A stretch of DNA of 64,000 bases from Spirochaetota bacterium (GCA_024275515.1 JAJRYZ010000255.1:8890-72889); one strand, 5' to 3'; shown: positions 2,295-49,923, counted from the stretch's first letter. Program-made: numbers and translations. Notes: generated by a model not told the origin, from the letters alone.

Positions 2295-2466
2295 CTGACA
2301 ATGGTATGAGATCGTCTCGATTACTGTCAATGATAAGGGTGCGGGTGGTCATCATCGACAAAACCATAGGCGCGATGTTCTACAAAGAACAACGCGCCGA
2401 ATCGCCACCTGGTCTCCTTGTCCTTGTGCCGCGGCGGGTATCGCCGTACGATTCGCCGCGGAACTG

Positions 2467-4806
2467 TTACGACCCGACCGCGGCGGCAGTCGCCCTGTTT
2501 GTTAGCGATGAATCTGCGTACGGACATGCCAATACACATGGTTCGGCTACCACCGGTCGGAACTTTTTAATCGGATCATGCTTTTTTAGTGCATCTGCAA
2601 GTTTGTCTGGAGTCACAGAATCGCCGGGGTTTTCATTCACAAGGGATCCGACGTACTTGAACCCGCTTTCTCCCATGAGAGCCCACCGCTTTGTCCAATC
2701 GCAAAGATCGCCCTTGATTTTATGGAAAGAAAATTCCCTGCCTTCACAGATGAACGTGATCTCATCGGCCCCGATCGCCTTGCTCGGACACGCGGCAATA
2801 CACATTCTCTCGCAATTATCACACAGAGATCTGGCGTTGGATGAAATGAGATGTGAAGCGTCAAGCTCCGCGTCCGTAATTATGGCGATAAATCGTTGCC
2901 GTATGCCGAACTCAGGCGTTACCGCATGCGCACTCACTGTGAGATCGGCTAGTCCGGCTGCGACGGCTGCAAACCTGTTGCTGAAAAGATCGGCTTGCGG
3001 TCCTCGTGGGTTCGCCGTGTATGATCCGGTTCCCAACAGATCCATGCTGATCGCGGCCTTGTAGCCGAGTCCTTCGAGACGCTTGACGATCTGAGACGCG
3101 ATTACCGATCCCAACCATTGGGTGACATACGTGAGGAACGAATACGGTCCAACCGCTTCTGCGGGTGGCTTCGTAGCTTGTTTGAGTACTTCTTCATGGT
3201 AACGCAACGCGAAAACGAACACCGAATGAGCCGTACTCAGAAGATCCCTCGGCATGATAACGGTTCTGGTTTCCGTTTCTATTTCCGGCTCCCAGGCCCG
3301 GAAACGTATCGAGTTGTCGTTGGCGTTCAGGACCCTCTCGCCGTCGAAAAAAGGTGCAATCTGTCTAGCTATCTCTTCGATTCTGCTTACCGGCGCAACG
3401 CCAACCAGATCAGCTCCCAAATCTTCAGCGAGTGAGCTGACGGCACGAGTCACTGCAGAACGGTTTCGTCTTCCGGCGGCGCCGATCGCCGCTTCATCGC
3501 GTTTGCTATGCCTGGTCCTAATTACTTTTCGGGTGAGAATCGTGTTACCGTACGAACGATCCTTGTCTATTCCGTCGGCGCCGTCGAGAATGAGGGCAGA
3601 ATAATTGGGTGTTGTCATTGGATCAGAATGAGATTCGTCCTCCTCGATCGTCATATATGATCGAAAGCCAAGCTCCTCCAACTCCCGAGTCAAGTCATAG
3701 CATAGTGAATTGACGAAATGACGGTATCCGAAGTCGAGTATCCGTTCTGTTTCCTCCGATGTGACCTCAGATGGTTTGCTCATAGCCAATGTGACGGCAC
3801 TCTGAGCTCCAGGAAGAAGCCTTTCGATATCGATCCCGCGCCTTTTCAGCTCCCGTGCGGAGTGAACAAGGATGTGTTCGAGACCGCGTCCATGTAGACG
3901 AGAGAAAGATCTGTCCACTGTCGCTCGGGATTCGAGCTCTTCGTCAAGCCTGATGGAAAGCTTCCGCACCGGCGTTCGTGAATACTCTCTTTCCCAGGTC
4001 CGCAGATTCGCGGGGAGACAGAACTTGAGGCACTGTCCCATTTCGCCCTTTCTGATTCCGTATTTCTCGATATATTCGAGGATGTTTTTCTCATTCACCT
4101 TCTCCGGGATGTCGAGAAAGACTTCCAAATCAAAATGCTCACCCCAAGAACAGCGCCATAGGTTTTTATTGGGAAACCGGTACTCATTGTCCTCTATTAT
4201 TAATACCTTATCACCGTCGATCTCTTTTGAAAGCGCGTTGGTGGGACAGAACTTCCGGCACAGCATGCAGTTGTCGCAGACGGTTCCCGGCGGAATAAGG
4301 GGATCCGGTTCGATGTCGGCGTCCGTTATCACGGTGACGAAACGATTGCGTGCGCCGTACTCGGGAGTAAGCGCAAGCCCGTTAAAGCCCATGTCGGCGA
4401 GACCAGCCACTACCGCCATATAGATATGGCTCACATCAGGAGCGAAGATAGCGTTGAGATCTTTGTATTGATTGTAGCGCCAGATATTGCTCGAAACAAT
4501 GGGAATCGCATTGTAACCAAGATCCTCAAGATACGTAGCCATGCGATAAGATGATTCGTCCAGACGTGAATTCATCAAATACTGGATAGAGTAAGGTCCG
4601 ATGTCCTGTGGGTGCTTCTCGCCGCCCAACTCTATCGCGGTATCCGGATGATGAAAGGCCATCGAAATGACCGTGCGGCTACCGGGGAACAGCCCCTGTG
4701 GACTCATCATGATAGGCGCGTGCTCACAACGTTCCACGTTTCCGAATCCCACAAGATTTGCGCCCAGCTGATACGCGTAGTCCTTGACGATCTCTTTTAC
4801 GGACAT
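2467..4806 (-). CDS. Cobalamin/[4Fe-4S] protein of the epoxyqueuosine reductase (QueG) / reductive dehalogenase fold, with tandem repeated modules (779 aa)
   Basis: Two copies of GA(N/D)LVG...AGL(A)...TPE(Y/F)G.R.RF...ITDA followed by CDNC..C...CP, plus a degenerate middle module. ATG at 4806 has a GGAGG RBS; no Tat signal. Confidence 0.8.
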   Translation of the reverse strand: MSVKEIVKDYAYQLGANLVGFGNVERCEHAPIMMSPQGLFPGSRTVISMAFHHPDTAIELGGEKHPQDIGPYSIQYLMNSRLDESSYRMATYLEDLGYNAIPIVSSNIWRYNQYKDLNAIFAPDVSHIYMAVVAGLADMGFNGLALTPEYGARNRFVTVITDADIEPDPLIPPGTVCDNCMLCRKFCPTNALSKEIDGDKVLIIEDNEYRFPNKNLWRCSWGEHFDLEVFLDIPEKVNEKNILEYIEKYGIRKGEMGQCLKFCLPANLRTWEREYSRTPVRKLSIRLDEELESRATVDRSFSRLHGRGLEHILVHSARELKRRGIDIERLLPGAQSAVTLAMSKPSEVTSEETERILDFGYRHFVNSLCYDLTRELEELGFRSYMTIEEDESHSDPMTTPNYSALILDGADGIDKDRSYGNTILTRKVIRTRHSKRDEAAIGAAGRRNRSAVTRAVSSLAEDLGADLVGVAPVSRIEEIARQIAPFFDGERVLNANDNSIRFRAWEPEIETETRTVIMPRDLLSTAHSVFVFALRYHEEVLKQATKPPAEAVGPYSFLTYVTQWLGSVIASQIVKRLEGLGYKAAISMDLLGTGSYTANPRGPQADLFSNRFAAVAAGLADLTVSAHAVTPEFGIRQRFIAIITDAELDASHLISSNARSLCDNCERMCIAACPSKAIGADEITFICEGREFSFHKIKGDLCDWTKRWALMGESGFKYVGSLVNENPGDSVTPDKLADALKKHDPIKKFRPVVAEPCVLACPYADSSLTNRATAAAVGS

Positions 4807-4808
4807 TT

Positions 4809-5561
4809 TCAGTTTCCTCCATTGCATAGGTTGCATGATATTTTTTTTGCGGTTTGAATGACTAAATTCAGAATTCGTTTCTTGTGCTTTCCCGTGAATC
4901 TTGATACGGGTAGGAAGACACCCAGCGCGGCGGCAATGATACCGTTGCTGCATATCCCCGCGGCAATACCGATCAGTTCACTGCCGCAAGGGCCGTATGA
5001 ATAACAGTCCATTGTTCTCAACTTCGCACAGGCCTCCTCGAGTTCTTCCACACTGGAGATGCCGTCCCACCGACCCGATGGCAGTCCTTGTGCCTTCGCC
5101 ATCCGCGCCCGTTCGCGTGGATTAAGATGAGCAATCAGCAATCTGCCGGTCGCCGTCGTGTAGGGGTCCTGCTCCTCCATGTAATCCAGACGGAGTCTAA
5201 AAGGAGAATCACGATCCACTTTACAGAGAATAACCTTTTTCCATCGGCTCAGGCGGGCAAGGAGGCATGTCTCATCCACTTCCTCGACAAGATGCTGCAT
5301 GTGAGGTTGGGCTATGTCGATGAGCTTGTGTAAATAGGAATTGGCACGGGTAAGACGGAATGGCTCCGGCCCAAGAATGTAACTTCGAGATCCGGCGGCC
5401 GTTTCAAGGTATCCGTTTCGAACTAGAGCCTGAACGATATTTGTGCATGTGGTTTGATTGATTCCGAGTTTTCTCGCGAGATCCGAAACACGTACAGGTT
5501 TTTCAGAATTAGCACTCACCAACCTGAGAATGTTAAAGGCTCGCTCAAGTACTTGTATCAT
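4809..5561 (-). CDS. IclR-family transcriptional regulator
   Basis: MIQVLERAFNIL N-terminal wHTH, L...GYL, ETC.L, TATGRLLIA, IAAGI...AALGV effector domain. Confidence 0.92.
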   Translation of the reverse strand: MIQVLERAFNILRLVSANSEKPVRVSDLARKLGINQTTCTNIVQALVRNGYLETAAGSRSYILGPEPFRLTRANSYLHKLIDIAQPHMQHLVEEVDETCLLARLSRWKKVILCKVDRDSPFRLRLDYMEEQDPYTTATGRLLIAHLNPRERARMAKAQGLPSGRWDGISSVEELEEACAKLRTMDCYSYGPCGSELIGIAAGICSNGIIAAALGVFLPVSRFTGKHKKRILNLVIQTAKKISCNLCNGGN

Positions 5562-5804
5562 GCCTGTTATCAATACTGTTGATGCGTAGCTATTATTATT
5601 GAATAGCGTCATGATGTCAATCGTTTTTTCGCGCCTCCGCAGAGTACTTGATCAGCAGACTTGAGTATTCACGTAAACCGGAGCTTCGCACTTGCGTATG
5701 GGCAGGCGGCGCCATCAAACTTTGATTTCAACGGATATTACCCGGAATCATAGTTTTTTCCTCTTGTGATCTGCAGTAGCAAGACCGCAAAATACTCTTT
5801 ACTT

Positions 5805-6749
5805 ATGCTGCCTACAAAGCTTCCGGCGGTAAAACGAAAACAAAAGCTTCTTGACTATTTGAGAAGCAACTATGACCTGTACCTGTTTCTCGTACCGGGT
5901 CTATTGGCTCTCGTCATTTTCAAATATATTCCCATACTCGGGATTTCGGTAGCCTTCAAGGACTTCACTTTGAGGGAAGGAATCATCGGCAGTCCATGGG
6001 CTAACCCCTGGTTCTTACATTTCCAAACCCTCTTCGCCTTGCCCCAATTCATCCGCGTTGTAACGAACACACTTATCATCAACCTGTACATGCTCGTGTT
6101 CCAATGGCCCATTCCGATCATACTCGCCATCGCTATCAGCGAGATCGGTAGCATGGGATATAAGCGAGTAGCCCAGACGGTAACCTACATGCCCCATTTT
6201 CTTTCTTGGGTCGTAGTAGGCGCGATTTTCATTGACATCCTTTCCACGCAAAATGGATTGGTTAATATTGTTTTGGGATGGTTCGGCGTTGAACCCGTGC
6301 TTTTTTTGGCGAGGCCGCCTCTGTTTCGTCCGATCCTGGTCATTTCTCAAGCGTGGAAAGAGTCTGGCTGGGCGAGCATCATCTATCTGGCAGCCCTGCA
6401 GTCAATCGACCCGCAGCTGTACGATGCGGCGCGCATTGACGGGGCTACTAAGATGCAGCAGGTATGGCGGATAACATTGCCGGGTCTTCTTTCCACCATG
6501 GTATTCGTCGTTTTGCTTAGAATTGCTCGCGCCTTAGACTACAACGTTCAGCAGATTATCATGCTCTACAACCCGTTAGTTTATGAGAGAGGAGATGTAA
6601 TTTCGAGCTACATCTATCGTGTAGGATTGCAGCAGCTCAAGTTCAGCCTGACAACCGCTCTCGGCGTCTTCAAAGGACTGATCGGCCTACTCATGGTTGT
6701 TTTTTCGAATTATCTTGCCAGGCGCTTCGCAGGCAGGGGACTGTTCTGA
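5805..6749 (+). CDS. Carbohydrate ABC transporter permease (LplB-like)
   Basis: YMPHFLSWVVV, GWASIIYLAAL..IDPQLYDAARIDGA (EAA loop), multiple TM segments. Confidence 0.93.
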   Translation: MLPTKLPAVKRKQKLLDYLRSNYDLYLFLVPGLLALVIFKYIPILGISVAFKDFTLREGIIGSPWANPWFLHFQTLFALPQFIRVVTNTLIINLYMLVFQWPIPIILAIAISEIGSMGYKRVAQTVTYMPHFLSWVVVGAIFIDILSTQNGLVNIVLGWFGVEPVLFLARPPLFRPILVISQAWKESGWASIIYLAALQSIDPQLYDAARIDGATKMQQVWRITLPGLLSTMVFVVLLRIARALDYNVQQIIMLYNPLVYERGDVISSYIYRVGLQQLKFSLTTALGVFKGLIGLLMVVFSNYLARRFAGRGLF

Positions 6750-7621
6750 TGGCAAGCAGAATCCGTGACCGTGATGAATTCCGTTTTAGGATGGCGAGCA
6801 CCATAACAGTAACAGTTTTCCTCATTGTGACTCTTATCCCATTCATAAACATCATTAGCAAATCCCTGAGTGATGAGGCGTCAGTGCTTGCCGGTGAAGT
6901 GCTCCTGTGGCCCATTAATTTCAATGTGCAGGCGTACAAGATCGTATTGGCTAACCATGAGTTTCTTCGCGCACTCAGTATTTCTGTCTATGTCACCGCC
7001 GTTGGAACTATTCTGACCACTACCGCCACAGTGTTAGTGGCGTATGCTCTTTCACGAGACTATCTGAAGGGGCAAAGGGTTTTCCGCTTTCTCTATATCT
7101 TTACTATGCTTTTCAGCGGAGGACTCATTCCAACATACCTCGTCGTCAGGGCGGTCGGTCTCATCGATAATCTCTATGCCCTGATTCTACCCAACCTAGT
7201 GGGTGTGTTTCAAATGCTCCTAGTGTCGAACTACTTCTATACAATACCCAAAGACATCGAAGAGTCGGCAAAGATTGATGGAGCGGGAAACACATTGATT
7301 CTGCGCCGTATTATGGTGCCTTTAGCCATGCCGGTCATTGCCACGATTATCCTCTTCTATGCCGTTGGCTTGTGGAATGAGTTCTTTGCGGCCCTCATGT
7401 ACCTAAATCGCAGAGATCTCAGACCTCTGCAAATCTACCTGCGGGATCTTATTATGCAGGCTGATAATAATCAAATGAATGCAGACATTATGCGGGATGT
7501 ACCAATGGAGAGTATCCAAGGCGCAACGCTGGTGGCTGCCACAGCGCCCATTCTGATCGTATATCCCTACCTTCAGCGATACTTCGTGAAGGGAATGATG
7601 GTAGGAGCGGTAAAGCAATAG
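6749..7621 (+). CDS. Carbohydrate ABC transporter permease (LplC-like)
   Basis: FTMLFSGGLIPTY, IP..IEESAKIDGA, YPYLQRYFVKG...GAVKQ. Confidence 0.93.
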   Translation: MASRIRDRDEFRFRMASTITVTVFLIVTLIPFINIISKSLSDEASVLAGEVLLWPINFNVQAYKIVLANHEFLRALSISVYVTAVGTILTTTATVLVAYALSRDYLKGQRVFRFLYIFTMLFSGGLIPTYLVVRAVGLIDNLYALILPNLVGVFQMLLVSNYFYTIPKDIEESAKIDGAGNTLILRRIMVPLAMPVIATIILFYAVGLWNEFFAALMYLNRRDLRPLQIYLRDLIMQADNNQMNADIMRDVPMESIQGATLVAATAPILIVYPYLQRYFVKGMMVGAVKQ

Positions 7622-7666
7622 CATATCCCGGTTCCGCATGGGATCGGAAAAGCAATGGAGGTTTCT

Positions 7667-9133
7667 ATGAAAAGATTTTTGGTGGTTACGTTGATGGCGT
7701 TCGTTGTTGCATCGGTTGGGTTCGCTGCAGCCGCCGCAGAACAGGAAGCGTCCTCTGAGCGTATTACGCTTACCGTTTGGACGAATTCAAACATGGAAGC
7801 GTTTCCTCCGGGACAAGATGAGAACAACAATCCCATCCATGCGTATCTGGAAGAAAAAACGGGCTATAAGCTTCACTGGCTTATTGGTTCTCAGGAAAAC
7901 GCCCTGGCAAAACTCAGCCTCCTCTTGGCATCAGGCGATCCTCCTGATCTGCTCTCTCCCATATCGAGGCAGTTTTTCGGCGAGCTCGTGAACCAGAGGG
8001 TGTTGTATGAACTTGATGAACTGATAGAAAAACGCGGCTCAATCTTTAAAAGAGACGACGTCGTGCCGGCCGGTCTTTGGCTGGCAGCACGTTCCGGTGG
8101 CCACACGTACGGTATTCCACAGCAAGGCGCCGTTCAGTCGCTGGGCGGGCCGCTCATCCGGAAAGATTGGCTGGATGAAGCAGGCCTTGAAGTTCCGACA
8201 ACAATCGAGGACTTCTATAACGTTTTGCAGGCATTCAAAACCATGCGTCCGGAATCCATACCCATGACAGGAGATACAAACAGTGTCCGGGGGGGGATAT
8301 CGCCGTTTGCCGGCCACTTCAATGCTGCAGTGATTTACGCGGAGTCGAATGGCAAGGTAATCGACACTCGGGTTACTGACGATATGAAAGAGTTTCTAGG
8401 CTTTCTTGCACGGCTCGTTCGCGAAGAACTCTTGGATCAGGAATACGTGATCAACAAAGGTAAGAATATCAAGGAGAAAGTGGCCGGCGGTAAAGTTGGT
8501 CTCTTTTCGAGTGCTCCTTGGGGATTGCGAGATCTTCTTCCCGCCTTTGAGGAAAAGAATCCGGGAGGCAAGTACATTTTTATCGCGCCTGCGATAGATA
8601 AGAACGGAAATGCAGGCGTACGTGAGCGGAACCCGATTCGAGGATTTGCCACGATTGCAGCCGATTCGAAGCATCCCGATGAAGCGTTTGATTTTCTCGT
8701 AAAATATGCTTCCAGCCGGGAAATCCAAGACTTTGTGTCCTACGGCGTGGAAGGAGTTCACTACAATAGGGACTCGAACGGCATTATCACAGCCACGGAA
8801 GCCGGGGCGGCGAGAAAGCACAACATTTACTACGTGATTTGGAATACGCCCGATGCGCACCTGATGCGGGCGAAAATGAAGGGCTTTTGGCCGGTCTATG
8901 AGCCAACATTCAAATACTCTCTGTACAAAGACGTCACTTCTTATGCACCCCCTATCGCCGACCTGGAGGCCGTAAAGACGCAGTTGGCGGATCTCACCGA
9001 CGAGATGTTCGATAAAATCATTATTGGTGCCGAACCCTTATCTGCTTTCGATGAGTATAAAAGGCAATGGAAGCAACTTGGCGGACAAAAAGCGCTTGAT
9101 GCGGTAAACGCCTGGTACGCAAGTACACAGTAA
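7667..9133 (+). CDS. Extracellular solute-binding protein, carbohydrate family 1 (LplA-like)
   Basis: Signal peptide, LLASGDPPDL, IRKDWLDEAGLEVPTTIEDFY, YGVEGVHY; GGAGG RBS before ATG 7667. Confidence 0.92.
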   Translation: MKRFLVVTLMAFVVASVGFAAAAAEQEASSERITLTVWTNSNMEAFPPGQDENNNPIHAYLEEKTGYKLHWLIGSQENALAKLSLLLASGDPPDLLSPISRQFFGELVNQRVLYELDELIEKRGSIFKRDDVVPAGLWLAARSGGHTYGIPQQGAVQSLGGPLIRKDWLDEAGLEVPTTIEDFYNVLQAFKTMRPESIPMTGDTNSVRGGISPFAGHFNAAVIYAESNGKVIDTRVTDDMKEFLGFLARLVREELLDQEYVINKGKNIKEKVAGGKVGLFSSAPWGLRDLLPAFEEKNPGGKYIFIAPAIDKNGNAGVRERNPIRGFATIAADSKHPDEAFDFLVKYASSREIQDFVSYGVEGVHYNRDSNGIITATEAGAARKHNIYYVIWNTPDAHLMRAKMKGFWPVYEPTFKYSLYKDVTSYAPPIADLEAVKTQLADLTDEMFDKIIIGAEPLSAFDEYKRQWKQLGGQKALDAVNAWYASTQ

Positions 9134-9230: not shown

Positions 9231-10691
9231 TTACATAGTCATTGGGTCCAGCCACGGATTGGAATCCGCACTCCAAAGAGTACCTCCGGAAATATCGCTT
9301 TCCGGCACTCCGGAGGAGTAACCTGCATTGATATAATTCGGATCGCCGTGTGGACCGTATCCAAGTTCAGAAAGACGTCGGCGGAAACGCCCCATTATGT
9401 CCACATATTCCGGCTCCAAAGCAACGTTCTGTAATTCAGCCGGATCGGCGTTCAAGTCGAAAAGCACTTCGGGAATATCTTCGCCGTAGTACTGATACTT
9501 AAGATGATCTTTCTTGATCATGACATGATCGCGATGGTGGCGGTTAATGTGAGAGACGACCTCGTTGGACCATTCTAGCGCATCCCCTCGCACAAGGGGA
9601 AGAAGCGTGCGGCTGTCCAATCCCGGCGGAGCATCCAATCCACTCAAGTCGCACAGGGTAGCATAGAGGTCGCAAAGACTCACGTTTTGTTCAACACGTT
9701 TGCCCGCGGGAATCTGTCCGGGCCAACGGATGAAAAAGGGAACGCGTACGCTTGCGTCGTAAAACCGCGTTTTTTCCCAAATGCCGTGCTGACCGAGCAT
9801 CTCGCCATGATCCGACAGATACACGATAATCCAATCATCAAGATCTTGCCCACATTGACGCAATGTGCCTAGAAGCTCGCCAAAGTGGGTGTCGATCGTT
9901 TCGACCATACCATAATAGGTAGCCGTCGCTCGGCGAATTTCATCCGGAGTTACATTGACCGGATCTTCCGCCTGGCTCTGTGAAAGAACAGGATGTTGAC
10001 AAGGTTTTTCGGTATACACAGGTACTTTTGAGTAATAGTAATCAAATTTCTTTTGATCGGTACAGAAAGGATAATGAGGTTGTTTTAAACTCACCTTCAG
10101 CATCAACGGGCGGCATCGAGAAGTCCGCTCACTAAAATAGGACTGTATAAAGTGCTGTGCAGCGTCAACAGCATGAGCGTCGAACCACTGGTGTTTACCG
10201 AACTCTACCGAAGCGCCGCGAACAATGCTCTCATTAGTTGGCCGTCCGCGCGTAAGCGGTTGATCTTGGGCCAGCCACGCCTCCTTCAATAGGCCTTCCT
10301 GGTACTTCACAAATACTTTCGCATCCGGCGCCAGTCGCTGAGTCCAACCCTGCATTTGATCGGTGCCTATGTGATGGAGTTTGCCGGAACAGACGGTATT
10401 GTAAGCATTTTGAGAAAACCGCCGCGAAAAAGTCGGATACCCCGGAGCAAGATCCATCCAGCTTCCGTCACAACCACAGGTCTTAGGCAGTTGACCCGAC
10501 ATGAGACATTGCCGGGCCGGTACGCAGATAGGAGAGGGTGTGTAAGCATTATCAAAAACCGTTCCTTCTCGGGCAAGACAATCAAGAACAGGCGTTTTGA
10601 CTATTGAATTGCCGCCGAATCCGGAAAGGTCGGCCCGATGTTCGTCACTCATGAGAATTAGAATATTAGGGTAACAGCTGTTATTAGACAT
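9231..10691 (-). CDS. Cys-type formylglycine sulfatase (S1 family, choline-sulfatase-like)
   Basis: PNILILMSDEH, SPICVPAR (CxPxR), GKLH, SDHGEMLG.HG.WEK, LFDL..DP.E..N. Confidence 0.92.
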   Translation of the reverse strand: MSNNSCYPNILILMSDEHRADLSGFGGNSIVKTPVLDCLAREGTVFDNAYTPSPICVPARQCLMSGQLPKTCGCDGSWMDLAPGYPTFSRRFSQNAYNTVCSGKLHHIGTDQMQGWTQRLAPDAKVFVKYQEGLLKEAWLAQDQPLTRGRPTNESIVRGASVEFGKHQWFDAHAVDAAQHFIQSYFSERTSRCRPLMLKVSLKQPHYPFCTDQKKFDYYYSKVPVYTEKPCQHPVLSQSQAEDPVNVTPDEIRRATATYYGMVETIDTHFGELLGTLRQCGQDLDDWIIVYLSDHGEMLGQHGIWEKTRFYDASVRVPFFIRWPGQIPAGKRVEQNVSLCDLYATLCDLSGLDAPPGLDSRTLLPLVRGDALEWSNEVVSHINRHHRDHVMIKKDHLKYQYYGEDIPEVLFDLNADPAELQNVALEPEYVDIMGRFRRRLSELGYGPHGDPNYINAGYSSGVPESDISGGTLWSADSNPWLDPMTM

Positions 10692-10701
10692 CAAGACTCC
10701 T

Positions 10702-11895
10702 CTATATGTCAAACTGCGCTATCAGGTTCCGGCCGTAGTCGGCCGCATCGTCTTTCGCCTGGTCGGTTGGAGTCCATTGGGCCTTGAATCCCTCGTCAAC
10801 CACGGTAAACCCCGAGCGATCGAGCAGTTCGCCGATGCGTTTCGTTGCCTCACCGCTCCAACCGTAGCAGCCGAACATCGCAGCCTTCTTGCCCCGGAAC
10901 CCCAGCCCACGCATTTCTTCCATGAGTCCCGCAATTGACGTGAGGATACCTTTGTTTATCGTGGGCGATCCGACGACGACGGCTTTTGATTTAAAGACTT
11001 CCGCGACGATATCGTTCTTGTCAGTCTTTGCGCTGTTGTAGAGCTTCACCGCGACCGCGGGGGCTGCGGAAGTCAGTCCTTCGGCGATGTTCTCGGCGAT
11101 GCATTTCGTTCCATTCCACATCGTGTCGTAGATAATCGTGATCTGGTTCTCGCAGTATTCGTTCGACCACTCCAGATACTTCTCCACGATCTGCCCCGGG
11201 TTGTCCCTCCAGATCACGCCGTGGCTGGGACATATGAGGTCGAGGGGTAGCTCAAGTGAAAGAAACTCCTCGATCTTTTTCCGCACCAGCCGATTGAACG
11301 GCGTCAGGATATTCGCGTAGTATTTCAGTGCTTCGGCGAACAACTCGCACTGATCGACCTTGTCGTTAAAAAGAAACTCCGTCGCGTAGTGCTGCCCGAA
11401 CGCGTCGTTGCTGAAAAGGATATTGTCTTCGGTCAGATAGCTGAACATGCTGTCGGGCCAGTGCAGCATCGGAGCCTCGATGAATACAAGCTCGCGGCTA
11501 CCGAGGTTCAGGTGGTCACCGGTTCTTACGGTGTGGTAGTTCCAGTCCTGATGGTAGTGTCCCGACAGACACCTCGCACCGTTGGAAGTACAGTAGATCG
11601 GCACATCGGGTATGCGACGCATAAGCTCAGGGAGAGCGCCGCTGTGATCGACCTCTGCGTGATTGGCGATCACATAGTCGATCTTCTTCAGATCGATCTC
11701 AGCCGCCAGATTATCGACAAACTTCTCGCCGAACGGGACCCACACGGTGTCGACGAGTGCGGTCTTCTCGTCCCGTATAAGATATGAATTATACGACGAG
11801 CCGCGATCGGTCGAGTATTCGTCGCCGTGGAACTTCCGGAGCTCCCAGTCGGTTATGCCGACCCAGTAGACTTCGTTCTTTATCAGCCTCTTCAT
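10702..11895 (-). CDS. fprA: Flavodiiron protein (FprA family NO/O2 reductase; beta-lactamase + flavodoxin domains)
   Basis: GSSYNSYLI, NHAEVDHSG, LHWPDSM, SNDAFGQH, PSHG, YDTMWNGT, GSPT, FGCYGWSGE. Confidence 0.93.
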   Translation of the reverse strand: MKRLIKNEVYWVGITDWELRKFHGDEYSTDRGSSYNSYLIRDEKTALVDTVWVPFGEKFVDNLAAEIDLKKIDYVIANHAEVDHSGALPELMRRIPDVPIYCTSNGARCLSGHYHQDWNYHTVRTGDHLNLGSRELVFIEAPMLHWPDSMFSYLTEDNILFSNDAFGQHYATEFLFNDKVDQCELFAEALKYYANILTPFNRLVRKKIEEFLSLELPLDLICPSHGVIWRDNPGQIVEKYLEWSNEYCENQITIIYDTMWNGTKCIAENIAEGLTSAAPAVAVKLYNSAKTDKNDIVAEVFKSKAVVVGSPTINKGILTSIAGLMEEMRGLGFRGKKAAMFGCYGWSGEATKRIGELLDRSGFTVVDEGFKAQWTPTDQAKDDAADYGRNLIAQFDI

Positions 11896-12431
11896 CTTCT
11901 TCTCCTTCCGTTGCTGCAAAGACACTCACTCGACCGCCTCGATGAGTTTCCGACTTTCCTGCTCGGCCGATGGTGATTTGATCAGTAGATATTCCGTTCA
12001 GCGCGAAGTCTAACATCTTCGACCGGCCGAATCAAAGAGCTCGGCTCTTCGCGCTTCCGCGCACCGTTGCGAGCAATCGAAGACGGCTCTCCGCCATGCC
12101 CGGCACAGAGCAGAGGGTTGCGGAAAGGCCATCGCCGACTCGGCGCCCGGCGCGCAGAGATGAGGCCCTAATGAGGAAAGTGTCGGAAAAACCCCGCGAT
12201 TCGCAGGAACCGAATAGCGTTGCCCTGTGGTGGCGAAAACCTTTTACGGAACAGAATTACACTCCGGGAAGGCGCGGTGCCAATCCGCAAGTTCGGCAGA
12301 TCGCCGAACGGCAGGGGCCGCCGCGTCAACTTCCGGTCCGCCTTTGCGTTTTGCCCCCTCAGAATGCAGCAATGCCACCGTTTACGGTTGCCCGGGACCG
12401 TGCGACAATTAATCAATAAGGACAAGCCTCT

Positions 12432-13781
12432 ATGCACATCGCCGAACGTCTCAAGACCCCCGTTGCGGGTGAATATGACGTCGTAGTAGCCGGCGGCGGA
12501 CCCGCGGGCGTGCCCGCCGCGGTGGCGTCGGCCAGGAACGGCGCCGAAACGTTGCTCCTCGAGACAAACGGGTGCCTGGGAGGGGTATGGACCGCCGGGA
12601 TATTGACGTGGGTTTTCGATATTGAAAAAAACGGCATCGGCAAGGAGATAATAACCGGACTGCGTGAACGAAATGCGTACGTCGAAGCAGCTTCGCGTGG
12701 CATGGTGAACTTTACCTACGATGTGGAAGCAATGAAGCTGCTGCTGGAGCGGATGTGCGCGGAGAGCGGGGTTGACCTGCTTCTTCACACGAGAGTGGTG
12801 GGCGCCGAAATGTCCGGGGACGGCAGACGCCTGCGCGCCGTTATCACCGAATCGAAGTCGGGGCGCCAAGCCTGGAGAGCCAAGGCGTTCGTGGATTGCA
12901 CGGGGGACGGCGATCTTGCGGCACGGGTCGGTTGCAGGTTTGATCTGGGATCCGCCGACACCGGAGAGATACAGCCGCTCACGTTCATGGCTACCATCGT
13001 TGTGGCGAATCACCGGGAGTTGGAGCAATACATATCCTTTTACGGCGGAGTCCCCGAACACCGCCGGCGCACCGAAGCGTTCAAGGCACATCTCGCACGT
13101 CTGGGAATCGATTCATCATACGCGGTGCCGACTCTTTTTCAGATCAGGGAGAACCTTTTGGCCATAATGGTCAACCACCAATACGGTGTAGTCTCTCACG
13201 ACGCTAAGCAGATGACCCGCGCAACCGTACAAGCCAGAGCCGAGGTCGCCGGAATAGTGGACGCCCTCGCGACTAGTGACGGTCCGTTCCGCGGGTGCTA
13301 TCTCGCTTCCACCGCGGAGCACATCGGCGTGCGGGACGGACGGCGCGTGCACGGTCGATATCGGGTTACGATCGACGACATCGCCAAAGGGGCGCGATTC
13401 GACGACGCGGTATGCCGCGTACGCTTTGGTGTCGACATTCACGCGACGAGCGCAAGGATGCGGGATTTGAAGCATCAAAACTCGGCCAGAGGAGTGAGGA
13501 TGAGGCCGTACGACATTCCGATGCGGGCTCTCATCGCGAAAGACGTTCACGGACTGCTCCTTGCGGGCCGGTGCATAAGCGGCGATTGGTTTGCGCATGC
13601 CAGCTACCGTGTTACCGGTGAGGCTGTAAGTATGGGGGAGGCAGCGGGCGTGTTGGCGTCGCTGAGCGCGGATAGAGGGCGACTCCCCCACGAAGTGCCG
13701 TGGGCCGAGGTGAAGGCGTTGATTCCGGAAGTCCGTGACTATTGGCAGGATCCACAAGCGGACGTTGATTCATCCCGCTGA
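12432..13781 (+). CDS. FAD-dependent oxidoreductase (FAD_oxidored / PF12831-like), function unknown
   Basis: YDVVVAGGGPAG Rossmann motif, DCTGDGD, GVRDGRR, YDIPMRAL..K...GLLLAGRCIS...HASYRV. Confidence 0.88.
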   Translation: MHIAERLKTPVAGEYDVVVAGGGPAGVPAAVASARNGAETLLLETNGCLGGVWTAGILTWVFDIEKNGIGKEIITGLRERNAYVEAASRGMVNFTYDVEAMKLLLERMCAESGVDLLLHTRVVGAEMSGDGRRLRAVITESKSGRQAWRAKAFVDCTGDGDLAARVGCRFDLGSADTGEIQPLTFMATIVVANHRELEQYISFYGGVPEHRRRTEAFKAHLARLGIDSSYAVPTLFQIRENLLAIMVNHQYGVVSHDAKQMTRATVQARAEVAGIVDALATSDGPFRGCYLASTAEHIGVRDGRRVHGRYRVTIDDIAKGARFDDAVCRVRFGVDIHATSARMRDLKHQNSARGVRMRPYDIPMRALIAKDVHGLLLAGRCISGDWFAHASYRVTGEAVSMGEAAGVLASLSADRGRLPHEVPWAEVKALIPEVRDYWQDPQADVDSSR

Positions 13782-13799
13782 TCGTGGAACTATGACGGC

Positions 13800-15398
13800 A
13801 TGGAGAAAGTGCTTATCGTCGACGACGAACCGGCGGCATTGAGAGGATTGCGCGCCTGCATCGACTGGGAAGGCCTCGAGCTGGAGATCTGCGCCGAGGC
13901 CCGAAACGGCGCGCGGGCGTTCGAACTAGTGGAAGAGCACAATCCGGCGGTGGTCGTGTCCGACGTGAGAATGCCGTTTGTCGACGGAATCGAGTTGGCA
14001 CGCAGCATTCAAGAACGAGCGCCCGATACGAAAGTAATTCTTATAAGCGCGTATGCAGATCTGGATCAGATAAGATCCGGATTCAAACTGGACGCCGTCG
14101 ATTACGTACTCAAGCCGATTCAGGTGCAGGAACTGGAAGCCGCCGTGTCTCGTGCTTTGCAGAAGCGCGCACGGGAAAAAAAGGCAAAGACGATTCTCAG
14201 AGAGAAATTCCTCGTCGAGCTTATCGCGGGGGTTCACTCCAAGAGTTCCTCCATACGGCAAAGAATGCGATGGCTCGACATCGATTTGCCGCTTTCCTGT
14301 CCTTATCTGGCCTGCGTCGTCCTTCCGGCTGAAGAGCTTGACGACCCGGCCGCAAAAGAGATGCTTTTGATGGCCGCCGGCGAGCTGATCCAAAGAATAA
14401 TGCGTGACTATTTTGACGGAGTAGCATTCCGATCACTGTCGGGAGAGATCGTGTGCTTGATTCCCGTGAATATGGAACGTACCGTCTTTTTTGACAGACT
14501 AGATGCATTCCTGGGCGCATCGCCGCGCGCCTTTGAAAGGGAGCGATTGGGAGATGTGTGGATCGGTGTCGGTACCGAAGCGGGCGACATCGGAGAGGTG
14601 AACGGCAGCTATGACAACGCGCGAATCGCGTTGGAACAGCGCTTCTTCGAAGACGGTACGCAGGTGTACTATTGCGACTTTTCAGAAACGGCGAAGAACG
14701 ATCATATTCAGATACATCCCGGTGATCTCGAATCGGTCAGACACGCCGTCGCGGCGGGCAACGAACAGTTTCTTCGCTCCATCGTCGAAAAGCTCATCGC
14801 CGATGCGGTCTCTTCCCGCGCCAGGGACGTCGGCTTGGTACACAGTCTTGGCTTTCGCCTTATCATCGAGGCGGCCGACACGCTGGTAAAGCTCGGTGAG
14901 CCCGGAGCGGCCGTTGCGGTTGACGCGTATGGCGCGTGGAGAACGGCGGAACGGCAGAAGTCGTTTGTGGCGTTTCAAGAGGTGCTGCTGCAATACCTCC
15001 TTGGCGCCTGCCAAGAGATCGCCGAGCGCCGAAAGACTCATAATCAGGCGTTGGTTGATCAGATTCGGGATTACGTCGAAGAGAACTATGATCAGCCTAT
15101 AGGTATTTCCCACATTGCCGACACTCTGGAATACACCGTATCTCATATCTGCAATGTTTTCAAAAAACAGACCGGTATGACGATCAATGCCTATCTTACC
15201 CAGCATCGCCTGCGGCGAGCTGTTGAACTCCTCAGAAACCACTCCCTCAGACTGTATGAAATCTGTTCAAGAGTCGGATATGGAGACTACAAGCACTTTG
15301 TGTCTCTGTTCAAGCGGCACTACGGTGTTACTCCGTCTCGATATCGAGATCGACTGGTGTATGAAGAATGCGTACATGATTCTCGCCTCGGTCGGTAG
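13800..15398 (+). CDS. YesN-like response regulator (REC, degenerate GGDEF-like linker, AraC HTH)
   Basis: KVLIVDDEP...VSDVRMP..DG...YVLKP; C-terminal VGYGDYKHFVSLFKRHYGVTPSRYR. Confidence 0.92.
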   Translation: MEKVLIVDDEPAALRGLRACIDWEGLELEICAEARNGARAFELVEEHNPAVVVSDVRMPFVDGIELARSIQERAPDTKVILISAYADLDQIRSGFKLDAVDYVLKPIQVQELEAAVSRALQKRAREKKAKTILREKFLVELIAGVHSKSSSIRQRMRWLDIDLPLSCPYLACVVLPAEELDDPAAKEMLLMAAGELIQRIMRDYFDGVAFRSLSGEIVCLIPVNMERTVFFDRLDAFLGASPRAFERERLGDVWIGVGTEAGDIGEVNGSYDNARIALEQRFFEDGTQVYYCDFSETAKNDHIQIHPGDLESVRHAVAAGNEQFLRSIVEKLIADAVSSRARDVGLVHSLGFRLIIEAADTLVKLGEPGAAVAVDAYGAWRTAERQKSFVAFQEVLLQYLLGACQEIAERRKTHNQALVDQIRDYVEENYDQPIGISHIADTLEYTVSHICNVFKKQTGMTINAYLTQHRLRRAVELLRNHSLRLYEICSRVGYGDYKHFVSLFKRHYGVTPSRYRDRLVYEECVHDSRLGR

Positions 15399-20673: not shown

Positions 20674-21171
20674 CTAAGACACGGCCGCGCGCTCGGCGCT
20701 CTCGAACGCAACGATCTCACGCACACGCAGGACATTGAGCAATTCAGCTTCCGTCTGAATCACTCCCAAGCTGAACCTGCCCGCCGCATCGCCGAGGTGA
20801 GCCGGCGGCGGCTCGATGTCGGAGTGTTCGACCGTGATTATGTCTTCTACCCGGCTCACGAGCAGACCGATCATATCCGGGCCGGTCTCGTCATCCACCA
20901 CGCCTTTTTCCAAGAACCGGCTCATCATGCGCGAGTTTCTCAACACGACGCACCTAGATTCCGAGCGTATCTTCTGATCGCCGACGCCGATCCTGACGCC
21001 CAGGTCGATTACGGTGACTATCTGACCGCGCAGATTGAGTAACCCGCAGACATACTCCGGCGCCCCCGCGACGGGAACAATGTCGAGCTGGCGATTGATT
21101 TCATAGACAAGCAAAACATCGATCCCGAAGAGCATCTCACCGATCCTGAAAGTGACAAACTGACGCTTCAT
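20674..21171 (-). CDS. cheW: Chemotaxis scaffold protein CheW
   Basis: QFVTFRIG...FGIDV..V.EI, VAGAPEYVCGLLNLRGQIVTVIDL, GLLV..V.DI. Confidence 0.93.
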   Translation of the reverse strand: MKRQFVTFRIGEMLFGIDVLLVYEINRQLDIVPVAGAPEYVCGLLNLRGQIVTVIDLGVRIGVGDQKIRSESRCVVLRNSRMMSRFLEKGVVDDETGPDMIGLLVSRVEDIITVEHSDIEPPPAHLGDAAGRFSLGVIQTEAELLNVLRVREIVAFESAERAAVS

Positions 21172-21294
21172 ATTTCAACCTCCACTCCGGCCGTCAAACC
21201 GGCCACCGCCGCACGACCATCTCGGTCGTCTCGACCGGTGGCCGGAGTTTCAGATGTCACAATGAGAACTCCTGTCTCGTGACGGTGGACCGCG

Positions 21295-24200
21295 TCATCG
21301 CGGAACCAACGCTTTCAGCGTCGTGCGGAGTCCCTCTTTGTCGAATTTCGCCTCGAAAGCGTCGACCCCGGCGTCCAGAATTCGCTTTCGATCGCTTTCG
21401 TGCACCATGGAAGTGAGTGCCACGACAGGAAGTCCCGTATGCTTCCGGGAAGAGCGCACCAACGCAGTCAACTCTAATCCGTCAAGTTTGGGCATCTGAA
21501 TGTCCGTAACCAGCAGGTCGTAATCACTCGCGTTGAGCATGGACCACGCTTCTTCGCCGTCCTTCGCAACGTCCATTTCGCAGCCGATTTCCCTCAGGTA
21601 GGTGCTCACGACTATGCGGAAGAACTCCGTATCCTCGGCAAGCAATACGCGCTTCCCGCGGAGCTCTTCGCCGGCGCCGGTTTCCTGGTACATCGTGGGT
21701 TCCGCCGCTTCCAGTAGGCCATACACCTCGAGACAGATGATGAGATCCCCTCCCGCAACTATGGATCCCAAGACGCCCGTACCCGTAATTGTCTCTCTGT
21801 CGAGCCGAGCGTCCGTCTCGAGAATATCCTCGACACGACTTGCGCAAATCCCGACCCGCTTGCTCACGAGTTTCGGCACGATGACGAAGAGTTCGTCGTC
21901 GTCTGATTCCGGACGCTTCACGGGAAGATAATCGTGAAGCCTGATAAGGCGCATCGTGGCGTCTTCGTATTTCAGGTACTCCTTGTCATCTATCCATTCG
22001 ACGGCGCCTCGGTCGACTCTCTCTATCCGCTTTACCATCGACAGGTTGATCGCAAAGTGCTCGGAAGTGCCGCTTCGGAAGAGCAGCAGGGACTGCTTCT
22101 CCCTTATGCCGTCTCCGTCTTTGCCTTCAGATAGTGCCGATTCGATTCTCTCCAGGTCTCCTCCGAAACGCAGGCGAGCGGTAGTGGCCATGCCGGCCGC
22201 ATCCAGGATCATAGCGACGCGACCATCTCCCATAATCGTGGTGCCGGCGTAAAAGGGGCATTTTTTTAGATACGCCGGAAGAGGCTTAACGACGATCTCT
22301 TCGTTGTCTCTGAGAGTTTCGACGACAAGACCGTATGGGTTGGCGCCGACACGCAGGACGATTATGTTCAACGCGTTACGAAGATTGCGTCGCCGATCCG
22401 AAGCGTCGCGCCGTCGGTCGTCTTCGGCCTGTTTTCGTTTGGATTCGGACTCGCAGGATGCGTTCGCCGCCCGGTCGCTCGTTTCCCGCGAAATCGCGCC
22501 GGAGTCGAGCTCGGTAGCCCGTCGGTCCAGAATGCCTGTCCGCCGTTCGGCATGTCGCGTGCCCGTCGCGTCGACGTACGTGCTTTCGATTCCGAGCGCA
22601 TCGTTCAAGCGGATGAGAGGAAGCACTTTTTCGCGCAACCTCATCACCGGCCGTCCATGGATGCTCTCAATTCGGCGCGGTACATCCCGCGCGCGAATGC
22701 GCACCAGCTCCTCGATGTCGACCTGAGGGATCGCGAACACCCGATCTTCGTTCTCAAGGATCAACGCCGGCATGACGGCCAGCGTGAGAGGCAGTTTGAG
22801 CGTGACGCGAGTCCCCTGCCCGAGTTTCGATTCGATATCCACCGTTCCGCCTATTTTCTCGATGTTGGAACGTACCACGTCCATTCCCACACCACGCCCG
22901 GAAACGTCGCTTACCTGCTCCGCCGTTGAAAAACCCGGCGCAAGTATCAGCCGTAGCGCCTCGCGGTCCGACATCTGGTCTGCGTCATTTGGGGAGATCA
23001 TGTCACGTTCGATCGCCTTTTGCTTGATTCTTTCGGGATCGATACCGCCGCCGTCGTCGACTATCTCGATGACGACCTGCCCGCCTTCGTGCCGCGCACT
23101 CAGTTCGACGTGTCCCTGGGCCGCTTTTCCCGCGGCCTTTCGTTCCTCGGGAGTTTCAATGCCATGATCGGCGCAATTGCGAATGAGATGCGTGAGCGGA
23201 TCCCCGAGCGCTTCTATGATCGACTTGTCCAGCTCCACGTTTTCGCCTTGTATGACGAGCTCAATCTCCTTTCCCAGTTTTCGGCTCAAGTCACGGATCA
23301 GGCGGGGGAATTTCGAGAAGACGGTTCCGACCAACTGCATGCGGGTTCCCATGACACCGCCTTGAAGTTCACTCGTAACACCGTCAATGTCGAGCATAGC
23401 GCCGTTCAATAGCGGCAAATCGGAAAAGGTGCCGTCCAACAACTGGCGTAGCGCGGCGTTGATGTTGTTGAACTCGCGTTCGACAAGCTCCGCGAACGCA
23501 TCCGCGCCTCCATTGCCCGACGTGCGCGCCGCGGCGTCTAGACTTTCCCGGGAGGAAGCCAGTTGCTTCCTCAGCCGGTTCAATTCGGGGCTGCGCGCCA
23601 TTCCGGAGGACAGTTTTTCCATGAGCGACCGCTTAATGCGGTTGCGGCTCAGCACCAACTCTCCCGTGAGGTTCATCAGGTTATCCAGCAGGTCGATCCG
23701 AACACGAAGCGATTGGGAACTTGAGGACGCTCCCGTGTCTTTCTCTCGGCGCGGGGGATCCGTAACCGGCTCGCTCGATCGCGCGTCTCGGGTCGTCTCC
23801 TCCGGCGTCGACTCGCCGGCGGCCGTTTGGGAAGGCAGGAAGGCCACCAGCGGCGCCAGCTTTTCCGCGATCGCTTCTCTCAAGAATCAGTCGAGATCGG
23901 TCACTTTGACGATGGCCAGGTAATCGGCGAGAACGTCCTCCGCGCCGGCTTTTCCTTCCGCGGTTACTTGTTCACATATGGTTCGCAGCAATTCGCCGAG
24001 CCGTTCGGCAAGCTCGGCGGGAAGCTCGTCGAAATCGGCGGACTGCAGAAGACTCATAGCCTCTATAAACTCGGGAGTCCCCTGGTTCCGTGAATGAGCC
24101 GCCGCCTCACCGCTCTTTTCGTCCGACTTGAGAGAATCGGGCCGTTCGGACGGGAGTATCTCCGACAACCGGGCAAGCTCTTCATCGATGGGGATGGTTT

Positions 24201-24531
24201 CGGAGGCATGCACATCATCGATCAACACTCGAAGCTTATCGGCGCCTGCAAGCAGAACGTCCACGATTTCGGCCCGCACCGACAGCTTGCCGTCGCGTAT
24301 CAGGCCCATGATGTTCTCCATTGAATGGGCCAACTCGGTGATATGGGTCATCGAAAAGAAACCGAATCCCCCTTTCATGCTGTGGACGGCGCGGAAAATC
24401 CGATTCACCGCCTCCGGGTCCACGACATCGGGATGAGCCTCCAGCGCCATGAGCTCCGGTTCAATCGCCTCGAGATGCTCCTTCGATTCCGTGACCAGCT
24501 CATCGAGCAGGTCTTCATCAACATCGGCCAT
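21295..24531 (-). pseudogene. cheA: Hybrid CheA (HPt, dimerisation, HATPase, two CheW domains, REC) interrupted by an in-frame TGA at 23889-23887
   Basis: The HPt ORF (IFRAVHSMKG) and the kinase ORF (LRVRIDLLDNLMNLTGELV, HLIRNCADHGIE, GFST...SGRGVGMDVV) share one frame: ...KVTDLD-TGA-F-L-REAIAEKL. Confidence 0.8.
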
Positions 24532-24563
24532 GCGACGTACTCCTCTCTTTACCCGTCCGCGAA

Positions 24564-24944
24564 TCAGAACTCATCATCGATATCAAGTACCTCCATGAGC
24601 CGGGTCGTGATATCCTCGGGCGTGAACGGCTTGGTCACGTAATGTCTGGCGCCGAGCCGGATGGCCTTAAGCACGGACTCCTTCTCCGATTCGGCGCTGA
24701 CCATGATTACCGGAATATGCTGGAAGTTCGGGTTCGCCTTGATAATCTCGAGGCATTCGATCCCGTCCATCTCAGGCATGGTGATATCCAGGGTAATGGC
24801 GGCTATGTGAGCTGCATCCGTCTCCAGAGCCTCCAGCGCCTCGCGCCCGTCCTTGGCTTCGATTATTTCATACCCCATTATTTGCGCAGCGCCGGATATC
24901 ATCCGTCTCATTACGGTCGAGTCGTCTACAACGAGTAGCTTCAT
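24564..24944 (-). CDS. cheY: CheY-like single-domain response regulator
   Basis: MKLLVVDDS, ITLDITMPEMDG, MVSAE, YVTKPF. Confidence 0.88.
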   Translation of the reverse strand: MKLLVVDDSTVMRRMISGAAQIMGYEIIEAKDGREALEALETDAAHIAAITLDITMPEMDGIECLEIIKANPNFQHIPVIMVSAESEKESVLKAIRLGARHYVTKPFTPEDITTRLMEVLDIDDEF

Positions 24945-27490: not shown

Positions 27491-27540
27491 CGTGCCATAT
27501 CACCATTCATAATTCACATGTCGCTGAATTCGGAAAGTTC

Positions 27541-37361: not shown

Positions 37362-37513
37362 CGCGTTTCGGTCGCGGTGCGTCGGCTCACCGATGAAACA
37401 TTCTCGTGGAGCGATTCGGCGGAACCGCTGCTTCCTTGTGCGCCGAAACACGTAGCGGTACAATGAGGCGAGGCTTGACATTGCTCTCGATAAGGAGTGA
37501 ATGAGGAGCGGGT

Positions 37514-49865: not shown

Positions 49866-49923
49866 CGACCGTGTCTATTGTATGCACGGCGGACGCGCCG
49901 GGAAAACAAACGGAGGAGTTTTT

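Follow-up and report, generated by a model that had tools for sequence, protein, structure and literature searches.

A 64,000-nucleotide stretch of DNA from a Spirochaetota bacterium (GCA_024275515.1 JAJRYZ010000255.1:8890-72889), here called the window and numbered from its first letter, carries on the minus strand, at positions 2467–4806, a gene for a protein of 779 amino acids that probably belongs to a conserved clade of cytoplasmic class III (RdhA/QueG-type) corrinoid/iron–sulphur (Fe-S) reductases, built as a fused pseudo-heterodimer in which an N-terminal (N) and a C-terminal (C) module stand on either side of a vestigial core. This is a new architectural variant of the class III B12 enzymes, ordered complete–vestigial–complete, in which both complete modules have lost the same cysteine of the proximal cluster and which has an IclR-family regulator as partner in many loci. 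To our knowledge, only two kinds of reaction are known for class III B12 enzymes, reductive dehalogenation and epoxyqueuosine reduction, and every solved member of the class has one corrinoid per chain. A first-pass annotation of the gene had described three modules of the QueG/reductive dehalogenase fold with two complete B12/Fe-S units, in a cytoplasmic protein that was neither a tRNA-modifying QueG nor a respiratory dehalogenase, a description that the present analysis upholds with one amendment, to the clusters.

The proposed three-module anatomy was recovered when the modules were compared with one another. Slices cut from a 59-sequence family alignment, to which all counts out of 59 refer, were compared profile against profile (hhalign): the N module (residues 1 to ~290) and the C module (~448–766) matched with probability 100 (E 1.9e-64) over 258 columns spanning the whole module, including both Fe-S motifs, and by BLASTP the two are 28% identical over 203 amino acids (E 2e-20). 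The middle segment (286–447) matched both the N module (probability 99.4, E 1.7e-21) and the C module (99.2, E 1.3e-19), as well as the N core (first 170 amino acids; 99.5, E 1.3e-22) and the C core (99.3, E 1.8e-20). N, middle and C are thus mutually homologous, and the corrinoid-domain core occurs a third time in the middle segment, as a genuine copy.

In both N and C, a nitroreductase-like corrinoid domain leads directly into a ferredoxin-like domain for two clusters, all encoded on the minus strand. The corrinoid-binding-type core of the N module (residues 1–170, positions 4297–4806) contains GPY (70–72), an SSNIWRYNQYK loop, the AGLAD loop (134–138) and R153-N-R155; its ferredoxin-like part (171–285, positions 3952–4296) contains C177-x2-C180-x2-C183-x3-C187-P, C219 and C259-x3-C263. 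The corresponding parts of the C module are a core (448–655, positions 2842–3465) with PPAEAVGPY (547–555), ANPRG (598–602), NRFAAVAAGLAD and R636-Q-R638, and a ferredoxin-like part (656–766, positions 2509–2841) with C662-x2-C665-x3-C669-x3-C673-P, C702 and C757-x3-C761-P. Between them, the vestigial core (286–447, positions 3466–3951) has no AGLG loop, no RxR motif and no Fe-S cysteine, in agreement with the first-pass view of it as a degenerate module devoid of an Fe-S motif; its sole cysteine, C369, is kept in 23/59 homologues.

The three modules differ in how strongly they are conserved. Across the 59 sequences, pairwise identity averages 0.53 for N, 0.40 for C and 0.23 for the middle segment, which evolves fastest, and mean column identity is 74% in the N module against 57% in the C module; the N modules of 18 aligned relatives are 56–73% identical to that of the window. 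A quick maximum-likelihood tree (IQ-TREE, 56 rows) was made from 20 modules each of the N and C type, 15 single-module paralogues and the QueG of the genome, and in it the N modules (SH-aLRT 96), the C modules (98) and the single-module paralogues (100) each lay on one side of a branch. Because these groups separate, the duplication predates the spread of the family and is as old as the family itself, and N and C are ancient paralogues.

Both complete modules, rather than one of them, are recognised by profiles of the class III enzymes. The RDH profile TIGR02486 matched two stretches of the protein, one per complete module (E 1.3e-25, 91 bits against a cut-off of 160.35); TIGR00276 (QueG) gave 42.2 bits (E 4.9e-11, cut-off 200) and PF13486 (Dehalogenase) 13.8 (cut-off 24.3). 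Searched alone against the PDB, the N-module profile found PceA chains (E 1.1e-12 and 1.5e-9) and QueG chains (1.9e-6 and 1.6e-5), and the C-module profile likewise found PceA (E 3.1e-14, 4uqu, and 3.8e-11) and QueG (3.5e-8, 5d08). The best sequence-profile match of both modules is therefore PceA, a respiratory tetrachloroethene reductive dehalogenase (PDB 4UQU, 8Q4H).

An AlphaFold2 model of the whole protein, built on the 59-sequence alignment, had a mean pLDDT of 93.0 and a pTM of 0.94, and its comparison with QueG, NpRdhA and PceA gave Foldseek E values of 1e-7 to 3e-13 and Z scores of 17–19. Foldseek ranked NpRdhA first (E 3e-13, ~770 columns), followed by PceA (8e-11 to 4e-10), QueG (7e-8) and MMACHC (5e-3). 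In VIA-align, residues 448–769 of the model fell on residues 2–255 of Bacillus subtilis QueG (Z 19.1, rmsd 4.0, 235 residues aligned) and residues 1–392 on S. thermophilus QueG (Z 17.3; 17.1–17.3 overall for the N module against QueG), with Z 18.2 for PceA and 17.4 for NpRdhA; the QueG and PceA matches covered 213–248 aligned residues. Lower matches to MMACHC (Z 9.5) and to nitroreductases (Z 7–8) both spanned the N module together with the middle copy. Since N and C match separately, in profile as in fold, both complete modules have the class III fold.

It is in the cysteines that the idea of two complete B12/Fe-S units needs amendment: there are indeed two modules with both domains, but each has seven conserved cysteines and not the canonical eight of two [4Fe-4S] clusters. 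Those of the N module (C177, C180, C183, C187, C219, C259 and C263) are each present in 59/59 homologues and those of the C module (C662, C665, C669, C673, C702, C757 and C761) each in 58–59/59, with an additional C-module cysteine, C687, not conserved (25/59). The cysteines of B. subtilis QueG are numbered Cys188/191/194/198...214...240/243/247, and the cluster proximal to cobalamin is ligated by Cys198, 214, 240 and 243 (PMC5175355). When the modules are aligned with each other and with the QueG of the genome, M256 (N) and A754 (C) fall at the position of Cys240; position 256 is Met in 43/59 homologues and Cys in 0/59, and position 754, Ala here, is Cys in 9/59. With the equivalent of Cys240 absent from both modules, the proximal cluster would have three cysteine ligands, to judge from the QueG ligands, and this predicted three-cysteine cluster is a shared and conserved departure from the solved enzymes.

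The surroundings of the putative corrinoid site are better preserved in the complete modules than in the middle copy. Both retain the AGLx loop, and the conserved stretch AGLx...TPE(F/Y)GxRxRF suggests that they bind base-off cob(II)alamin. In profile hidden Markov model (HMM) alignments, I128–R155 aligned without gaps to PceA V278–R305, so that R155 falls on PceA Arg305, and R638 of the C module aligned likewise without gaps to the same arginine; the two equivalents are kept in 59/59 (R155) and 52/59 (R638) homologues. The xAGLGxxGxxxxxxTPEFGxxxR stretch, Arg305 included, and the first CxxCxxCxxxCP motif are common to PceA and this protein. In RdhA, Arg305 is the partner of Tyr246, the proton donor, and QueG has no counterpart of this arginine; a single conserved tyrosine lies above the corrin (Tyr246 in PceA, Tyr101 in QueG) (PMC4646009). 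Both modules therefore look RdhA-like in holding an Arg305 equivalent. Candidate tyrosines occur where the long core helix begins, Y72 (51/59) and Y76 (35/59) in the N module and Y555 (56/59) and Y560 (45/59) in the C module, and the C module also keeps the polar residues D606 (52/59), N610 (54/59) and R611 (51/59).

With QueG (PDB 5D0A, 5D6S) the protein shares the cobalamin-binding and ferredoxin-like domains (Z 19.1 and 17.3), the cytoplasmic location and the CxxCxxCxxxC...C...CxxxC spacing, but several observations set it apart, and the claim that it is not a tRNA-modifying QueG is borne out. Its score on the QueG equivalog profile TIGR00276 is far below the cut-off, and at another place the genome encodes a canonical QueG that carries WGRDYH and reaches 240.8 bits on that profile. 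The structural match extends no further than QueG residue 255, and the RNA-binding domain of B. subtilis QueG, HEAT-like and C-terminal, comprises residues 257–385 (PMC5175355); here 18 residues remain after C761, too few for a tRNA-binding domain, and what comes after the N module is a further copy of the corrinoid core, not a helical bundle. The DYH string was absent from all 779 residues, by string search and not by structural equivalence. The protein thus differs from QueG in having no HEAT-like tRNA-binding domain, no DYH and no Cys240 equivalent, and in having an arginine at the PceA-305 position. The tandem gene was found, moreover, in one of 30 related genomes and in 0/3 genomes of the same family (81–88% complete).

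Nor does the protein resemble a respiratory reductive dehalogenase in its topology. PceA, a Tat-exported protein with RdhB as its anchor, is longer by ~140 N-terminal residues, whereas the start of the present protein, MSVKEIVKDYAYQLGANLVGFG, already aligns to PceA residues 142–167, residue 2 falling on PceA 142. No Tat-like leader was found at the N-terminus, and the protein is predicted to be cytoplasmic, as the first-pass annotation had it. The absence of a small RdhB-like anchor gene next to it was likewise confirmed: the flanking genes encode the IclR regulator and an AraC-type response regulator, and the 137-nt gap downstream holds no open reading frame (ORF) of ≥60 amino acids. Together with the sub-cut-off TIGR02486 score, these features agree with the earlier exclusion of a respiratory role. 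The two-module assembly of PceA is, in addition, a homodimer of identical chains; here two modules at 28% identity are fused around a spacer.

The nearest architectural precedent is NpRdhA, the catabolic reductive dehalogenase of Nitratireductor pacificus (PDB 4RAS, 6ZXX), which combines a vestigial copy of the corrinoid domain with a catalytic one (PMC12219181). Like NpRdhA, the present protein has no Tat leader and no RdhB, would be cytoplasmic, and places a vestigial core copy beside a complete core and a ferredoxin-like domain. Unlike NpRdhA, which has one cofactor-bearing module, it has two such predicted modules in the order complete–vestigial–complete, and the domain arrangement differs as well, since global superposition was poor (rmsd 12.6 over 354 residues). 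In sequence the match to NpRdhA is marginal (phmmer E 0.017 over 80 residues). Related catabolic RdhAs carry a fused NAD(P)H reductase domain (PMC10463259); no reductase-type Pfam domain was found in the 779-residue protein.

Relatives of the same build are numerous. A word-indexed search returned at least 510 proteins at E ≤ 1e-3 among 7,999 candidates scored, and the best 120 of these are 743–813 amino acids long, with 94–100% query coverage and 53–61% identity. When 50%-identity representatives were searched exhaustively, there were 1,661 matches at E ≤ 1e-3 and 140 at E ≤ 1e-30, ~50 of the latter being full-length clusters with identity down to ~30%; with one genome taken per species, 274/299 candidate stretches were confirmed. 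Family members are labelled 'hypothetical protein', '4Fe-4S binding protein' or, automatically at JGI, 'epoxyqueuosine reductase QueG', and where a source is named it belongs to Lentisphaerota/Victivallales, Kiritimatiellae, Verrucomicrobiota, Phycisphaerales, Armatimonadota, Bacillota/Limnochordia, Spirochaetota or Sumerlaeia, a patchy distribution over PVC phyla, Bacillota, Armatimonadota and Spirochaetes. All clusters returned by the ESM Atlas were labelled 'hypothetical' or 'epoxyqueuosine reductase', and Lentisphaerota was their most frequent source; the full-text literature, subscription journals and supplements aside, yielded no description of an RdhA/QueG-like protein with tandem or two modules. 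No full-length homologue that has already been characterised thus turned up in the protein searches, the ESM Atlas or that literature.

Single-module RdhA/QueG-like paralogues of 277–387 amino acids were found in loci of Lentisphaerota, Kiritimatiellia and Spirochaetes, beside the tandem gene in nine of them, and often ≤5 kb from it and adjoining a second type of IclR gene. They share 25–34% identity with the N module (E values from 1e-20 to 5e-32), are closer to N than to C in 15/15 cases with two matches, and score below the RDH and QueG cut-offs. They differ from the tandem protein in having one module, in forming a clade of their own (SH-aLRT 100) and in their second Fe-S motifs, which have more cysteines. 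In three Victivallales loci (loci of relatives are given as L plus a number), L013:6067–9856, L007:6106–8997 and L027:5357–8226, a second-type IclR gene is followed by two to three consecutive single-module genes (277–382 amino acids), three in a row in L013 and L027, and these islands lie directly beside the IclR and tandem pair, amounting to up to five corrinoid-type modules. L027, a Lentisphaerae contig, also has two full-length tandem-type genes head to tail at ~10000–14738, for proteins of 774 and 780 amino acids.

The start of the gene, and with it the coordinates first given, could be fixed exactly, because a GGAGG ribosome-binding site, the stop codon of the upstream IclR gene and the starts of 29 homologues all point to the ATG at 4806. 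This ATG lies 9 nt 3′ of the GGAGG (4816–4820, minus strand), which itself falls inside the end of the IclR coding sequence, and is 2 nt past the IclR stop; the start residue is identical in 29/29 aligned homologues. A longer ORF of 828 amino acids, reaching 4953, was rejected: it overlaps the IclR gene, has no ribosome-binding site, and homologues begin at the 4806 ATG. The reductase gene is translationally coupled to the IclR gene (4809–5612, minus strand; Pfam IclR_C 4.5e-15, HTH_IclR 6.4e-9). A consensus scan found a sigma-70-like promoter match (TTGACA-17-AATAAT, 11/12) at the head of the pair, at 5592–5620 on the minus strand, a weak match, as five such sites in the region are not above the shuffled mean of 5.4. 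A look-up of sequencing runs covering positions 2300–5700 listed none, which says nothing either way about expression.

The IclR partner recurs in relatives. An HMM of their adjacent IclR genes matched the IclR ORF of the window at E 1.1e-62; NCBIfam returned nothing at cut-off for this protein, only generic sub-threshold matches to BhcR, PcaR, KdgR and IclR that give no clue to an effector. The neighbourhood set consisted of 80 relatives' loci and the window (81), reduced to 78 by leaving out L009, L034 and L037, where an antisense ORF was called and the target missed. IclR lay within 600 nt of the target in 44/78 loci (36 upstream on the same strand, seven downstream on the same strand and one on the opposite strand), and was adjacent in 32/48 loci with ≥900 nt on both flanks.

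In the window, the pair faces a divergent ABC sugar-transporter operon (5766–9133, plus strand), and downstream of the reductase gene lies the gene for the AraC-type response regulator, together with one for a Cache/HAMP histidine kinase. Also close by are genes for a sulfatase, a flavodiiron protein and a PF12831 FAD oxidoreductase. An Rfam scan of the 64-kb window gave no match at gathering thresholds, and therefore no riboswitch precedes the reductase gene. The genome carries two cobalamin riboswitches, none of them in the window; these and its own QueG indicate that the genome handles B12.

Pfam was run on 151/226 neighbours within three genes (43 loci), and a glycoside hydrolase (GH), polysaccharide lyase (PL) or lyase-like, carbohydrate-binding module (CBM) or sulfatase gene was found within three genes in ~15 of the 43 loci scanned. 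GH20, GH89-like, GH123, heparinase II/III-like, NagX-like, sulfatase, solute-binding protein (SBP), MFS, LacI/AraC, URO-D-like and PF12831 genes occurred in a few loci each. The tightest operon-like link to the breakdown of amino-sugar glycans is that of three Kiritimatiellia/Lentisphaeraceae loci (L061:8607–13888, L069:8592–15009 and L068:8050–15069), where the tandem gene, ~42% identical to that of the window, is co-directional with MFS, GH123-like, GH89 (NAGLU)-like and GH20-like genes; in L061, by the ORF calls made here, a GH20-like gene begins right after its stop. This link to glycans is a lead, not a finding.

From these data a mechanism can be proposed. Each complete module would bind one base-off corrinoid, a distal four-cysteine [4Fe-4S] cluster and a proximal three-cysteine cluster, which might be a [3Fe-4S] or a site-differentiated [4Fe-4S] cluster. 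A low-potential cytoplasmic donor, ferredoxin or flavodoxin, would reduce the clusters, which would in turn reduce cobalt to Co(I); Co(I) would then attack a small soluble substrate and drive out a leaving group, the reaction being a reductive elimination or substitution of two electrons in which a Tyr/Arg pair delivers protons as in RdhA. The more conserved N module may be the main catalytic site and the C module a second cofactor-loaded site, and the IclR regulator, presumed to be co-transcribed, would control expression and probably sense substrate or product. The substrate would be neither tRNA nor a respiratory organohalide acted on outside the membrane; given the frequent position of the gene among those of glycan degradation, a carbohydrate-derived or glycan-associated metabolite is the best guess. 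A bolder version, which we regard as decidedly doubtful, has both modules loaded with corrinoid, making this the first known chain with two class III B12 sites, each supplied with electrons by a site-differentiated, three-cysteine proximal cluster, and catalysing a non-dehalogenating reductive elimination on a glycan-derived metabolite sensed by IclR, with, for example, sulfate, hydroxyl or epoxide oxygen expelled from an amino-sugar or cyclitol derivative; if true, the anaerobic catabolism of polysaccharides would gain a B12-dependent reaction that is new.

Several points weigh against placing the protein among the corrinoid/Fe-S reductases in this way. Every Pfam and NCBIfam match of the protein falls below its curated cut-off, and all B12 assignments made here derive from homology. 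The redox chain would differ from that of the solved enzymes, one canonical cysteine being missing per module. Assignment of the catalytic tyrosine is inconsistent in register, in that the HMM alignment sets PceA Tyr246 on F557, two residues past the conserved Y555, and hhalign to the genome's own QueG does not match DYH to the GPY motif. As to context, IclR is absent from 16/48 loci with both flanks, no neighbour apart from IclR recurs in more than 8/81 loci, and the glycan link is weak, with no enrichment claimed, because the phyla concerned are rich in such genes anyway.

Other explanations fit parts of the same evidence. That the protein has a single active site, with corrinoid catalysis confined to the N module, the C module turned into an internal ferredoxin or scaffold that keeps its Fe-S clusters, has no corrinoid or a non-catalytic one and relays electrons to N, and the middle serving as a spacer, is possible but in our estimate somewhat unlikely: the N module is the more constrained of the two in both pairwise and column identity, the single-module paralogues consistently resemble it rather than C, and NpRdhA shows that a domain copy can lose its cofactor and yet persist as a scaffold (PMC12219181), but the C module keeps its AGLx loop, R638, Y555, D606, N610 and R611, which a mere relay would not need, and it is this module that gives the best fold match to the cobalamin and ferredoxin domains of QueG. 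A non-respiratory catabolic dehalogenase of the NpRdhA/BhbA kind, acting on natural organohalides for carbon use or detoxification, we think unlikely, even with RDH as the best family score, NpRdhA at the head of the Foldseek matches, and a predicted cytoplasmic location and vestigial domain copy that resemble those of NpRdhA. The RdhA-type arginine, absent in QueG (PMC4646009), is retained too; a survey ties cytosolic rdhA-like genes to IclR/MarR regulators and galactose degradation genes (PMC12219181); and the paralogue islands with regulators of their own (L007, L013, L027) recall rdh gene clusters. Against such a dehalogenase stand the marginal sequence match to NpRdhA, an RDH score well short of the cut-off, the absence of a fused NAD(P)H reductase domain, a very high conservation of the N module across phyla, more in keeping with a single fixed metabolite than with the range of substrates seen in RdhAs, and the fact that no halogen-related gene recurs among the neighbours scanned.

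It is very unlikely that the fold has been retained with no corrinoid at all and that catalysis takes place at the three-cysteine proximal cluster, whose free iron would bind and reduce the substrate. In IspG, IspH and QueH, the free iron of an Fe-S cluster does bind and reduce substrate, and loss of the same proximal-cluster cysteine from both modules would suit such chemistry. However, both modules conserve the loop and the arginine found on either side of the corrin in PceA, and the middle copy displays what this domain looks like once the constraints of a cofactor site are gone. Least probable, to the point that we would be surprised by it, is the reading implied by the automatic JGI name, another epoxyqueuosine reductase with tRNA as its substrate: many homologues bear the 'QueG' label and the fold scores against the cobalamin and ferredoxin domains of QueG are high (Z 17–19), but the profile score, the end of the fold match short of the RNA-binding domain, the short C-terminal tail, the missing DYH and the canonical QueG in the same genome all speak against it, and presence in one of 30 related genomes is not what would be expected of a housekeeping tRNA enzyme. 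A fused corrinoid/Fe-S reductase of the complete–vestigial–complete type is the reading we retain.

Some further genes of the window have relatives near tandem genes elsewhere. The PF12831 FAD-dependent oxidoreductase (12432–13781, plus strand; E 3.4e-96) has relatives ≤10 kb from the tandem gene in L015, L026, L041 and L048. Two sulfatases with an SGSH_C (N-sulphoglucosamine sulphohydrolase C-terminal) domain are encoded at 9231–10712 (minus strand) and 53070–54560 (plus strand), and sulfatases of the same cluster as those of the window lie near the tandem gene in L007, L018, L036 and L050. URO-D-like proteins, a family that includes partners of corrinoid-dependent methyltransferases, are encoded a few genes from the tandem gene at L016:17535–18581, L024:7875–9023, L048:7437–8420 and L013:3992–4945. 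A SoFic-like Fic protein (46919–48037, minus strand) has one relative immediately upstream of the tandem gene at L003:8086–9177 and another in L013, which is probably coincidence.

Elsewhere in the window, a chemotaxis cluster (20674–30000, minus strand) encodes CheW, a CheA-CheW-receiver fusion (862 amino acids), an Hpt protein, CheR, a receiver protein, CheB and an 819-amino-acid methyl-accepting chemotaxis protein (MCP) with a NIT (nitrate/nitrite-sensing) domain, and is followed at 31347–36737 by a gene for a PAS-rich hybrid sensor kinase of 1,796 amino acids. Two split transketolase pairs, each of an N-terminal half and a pyrimidine-binding/C-terminal half, occur at 49882–51776 and 61151–62955 (both plus strand), one after a GH2 gene and the other after an oligopeptide-type ABC transporter and a sulfatase. 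An ORF of 827 amino acids (40202–42685, plus strand) had no Pfam match at E ≤ 1e-5, and the same holds for the ORFs at 43574–44401, 30038–30976 and 37387–37929.

With at least 510 proteins in several phyla of anaerobic glycan degraders, the tandem proteins make up a deep and well-conserved clade, many members of which are mislabelled as QueG in databases, a systematic annotation error that can now be flagged. Oligosphaera ethanolica DSM 24202 (locus L042) offers a cultured entry point. Discovery of the substrate would probably add a third type of reaction to the class III B12 enzymes, and the family could show what purpose is served by a fused, two-corrinoid assembly.

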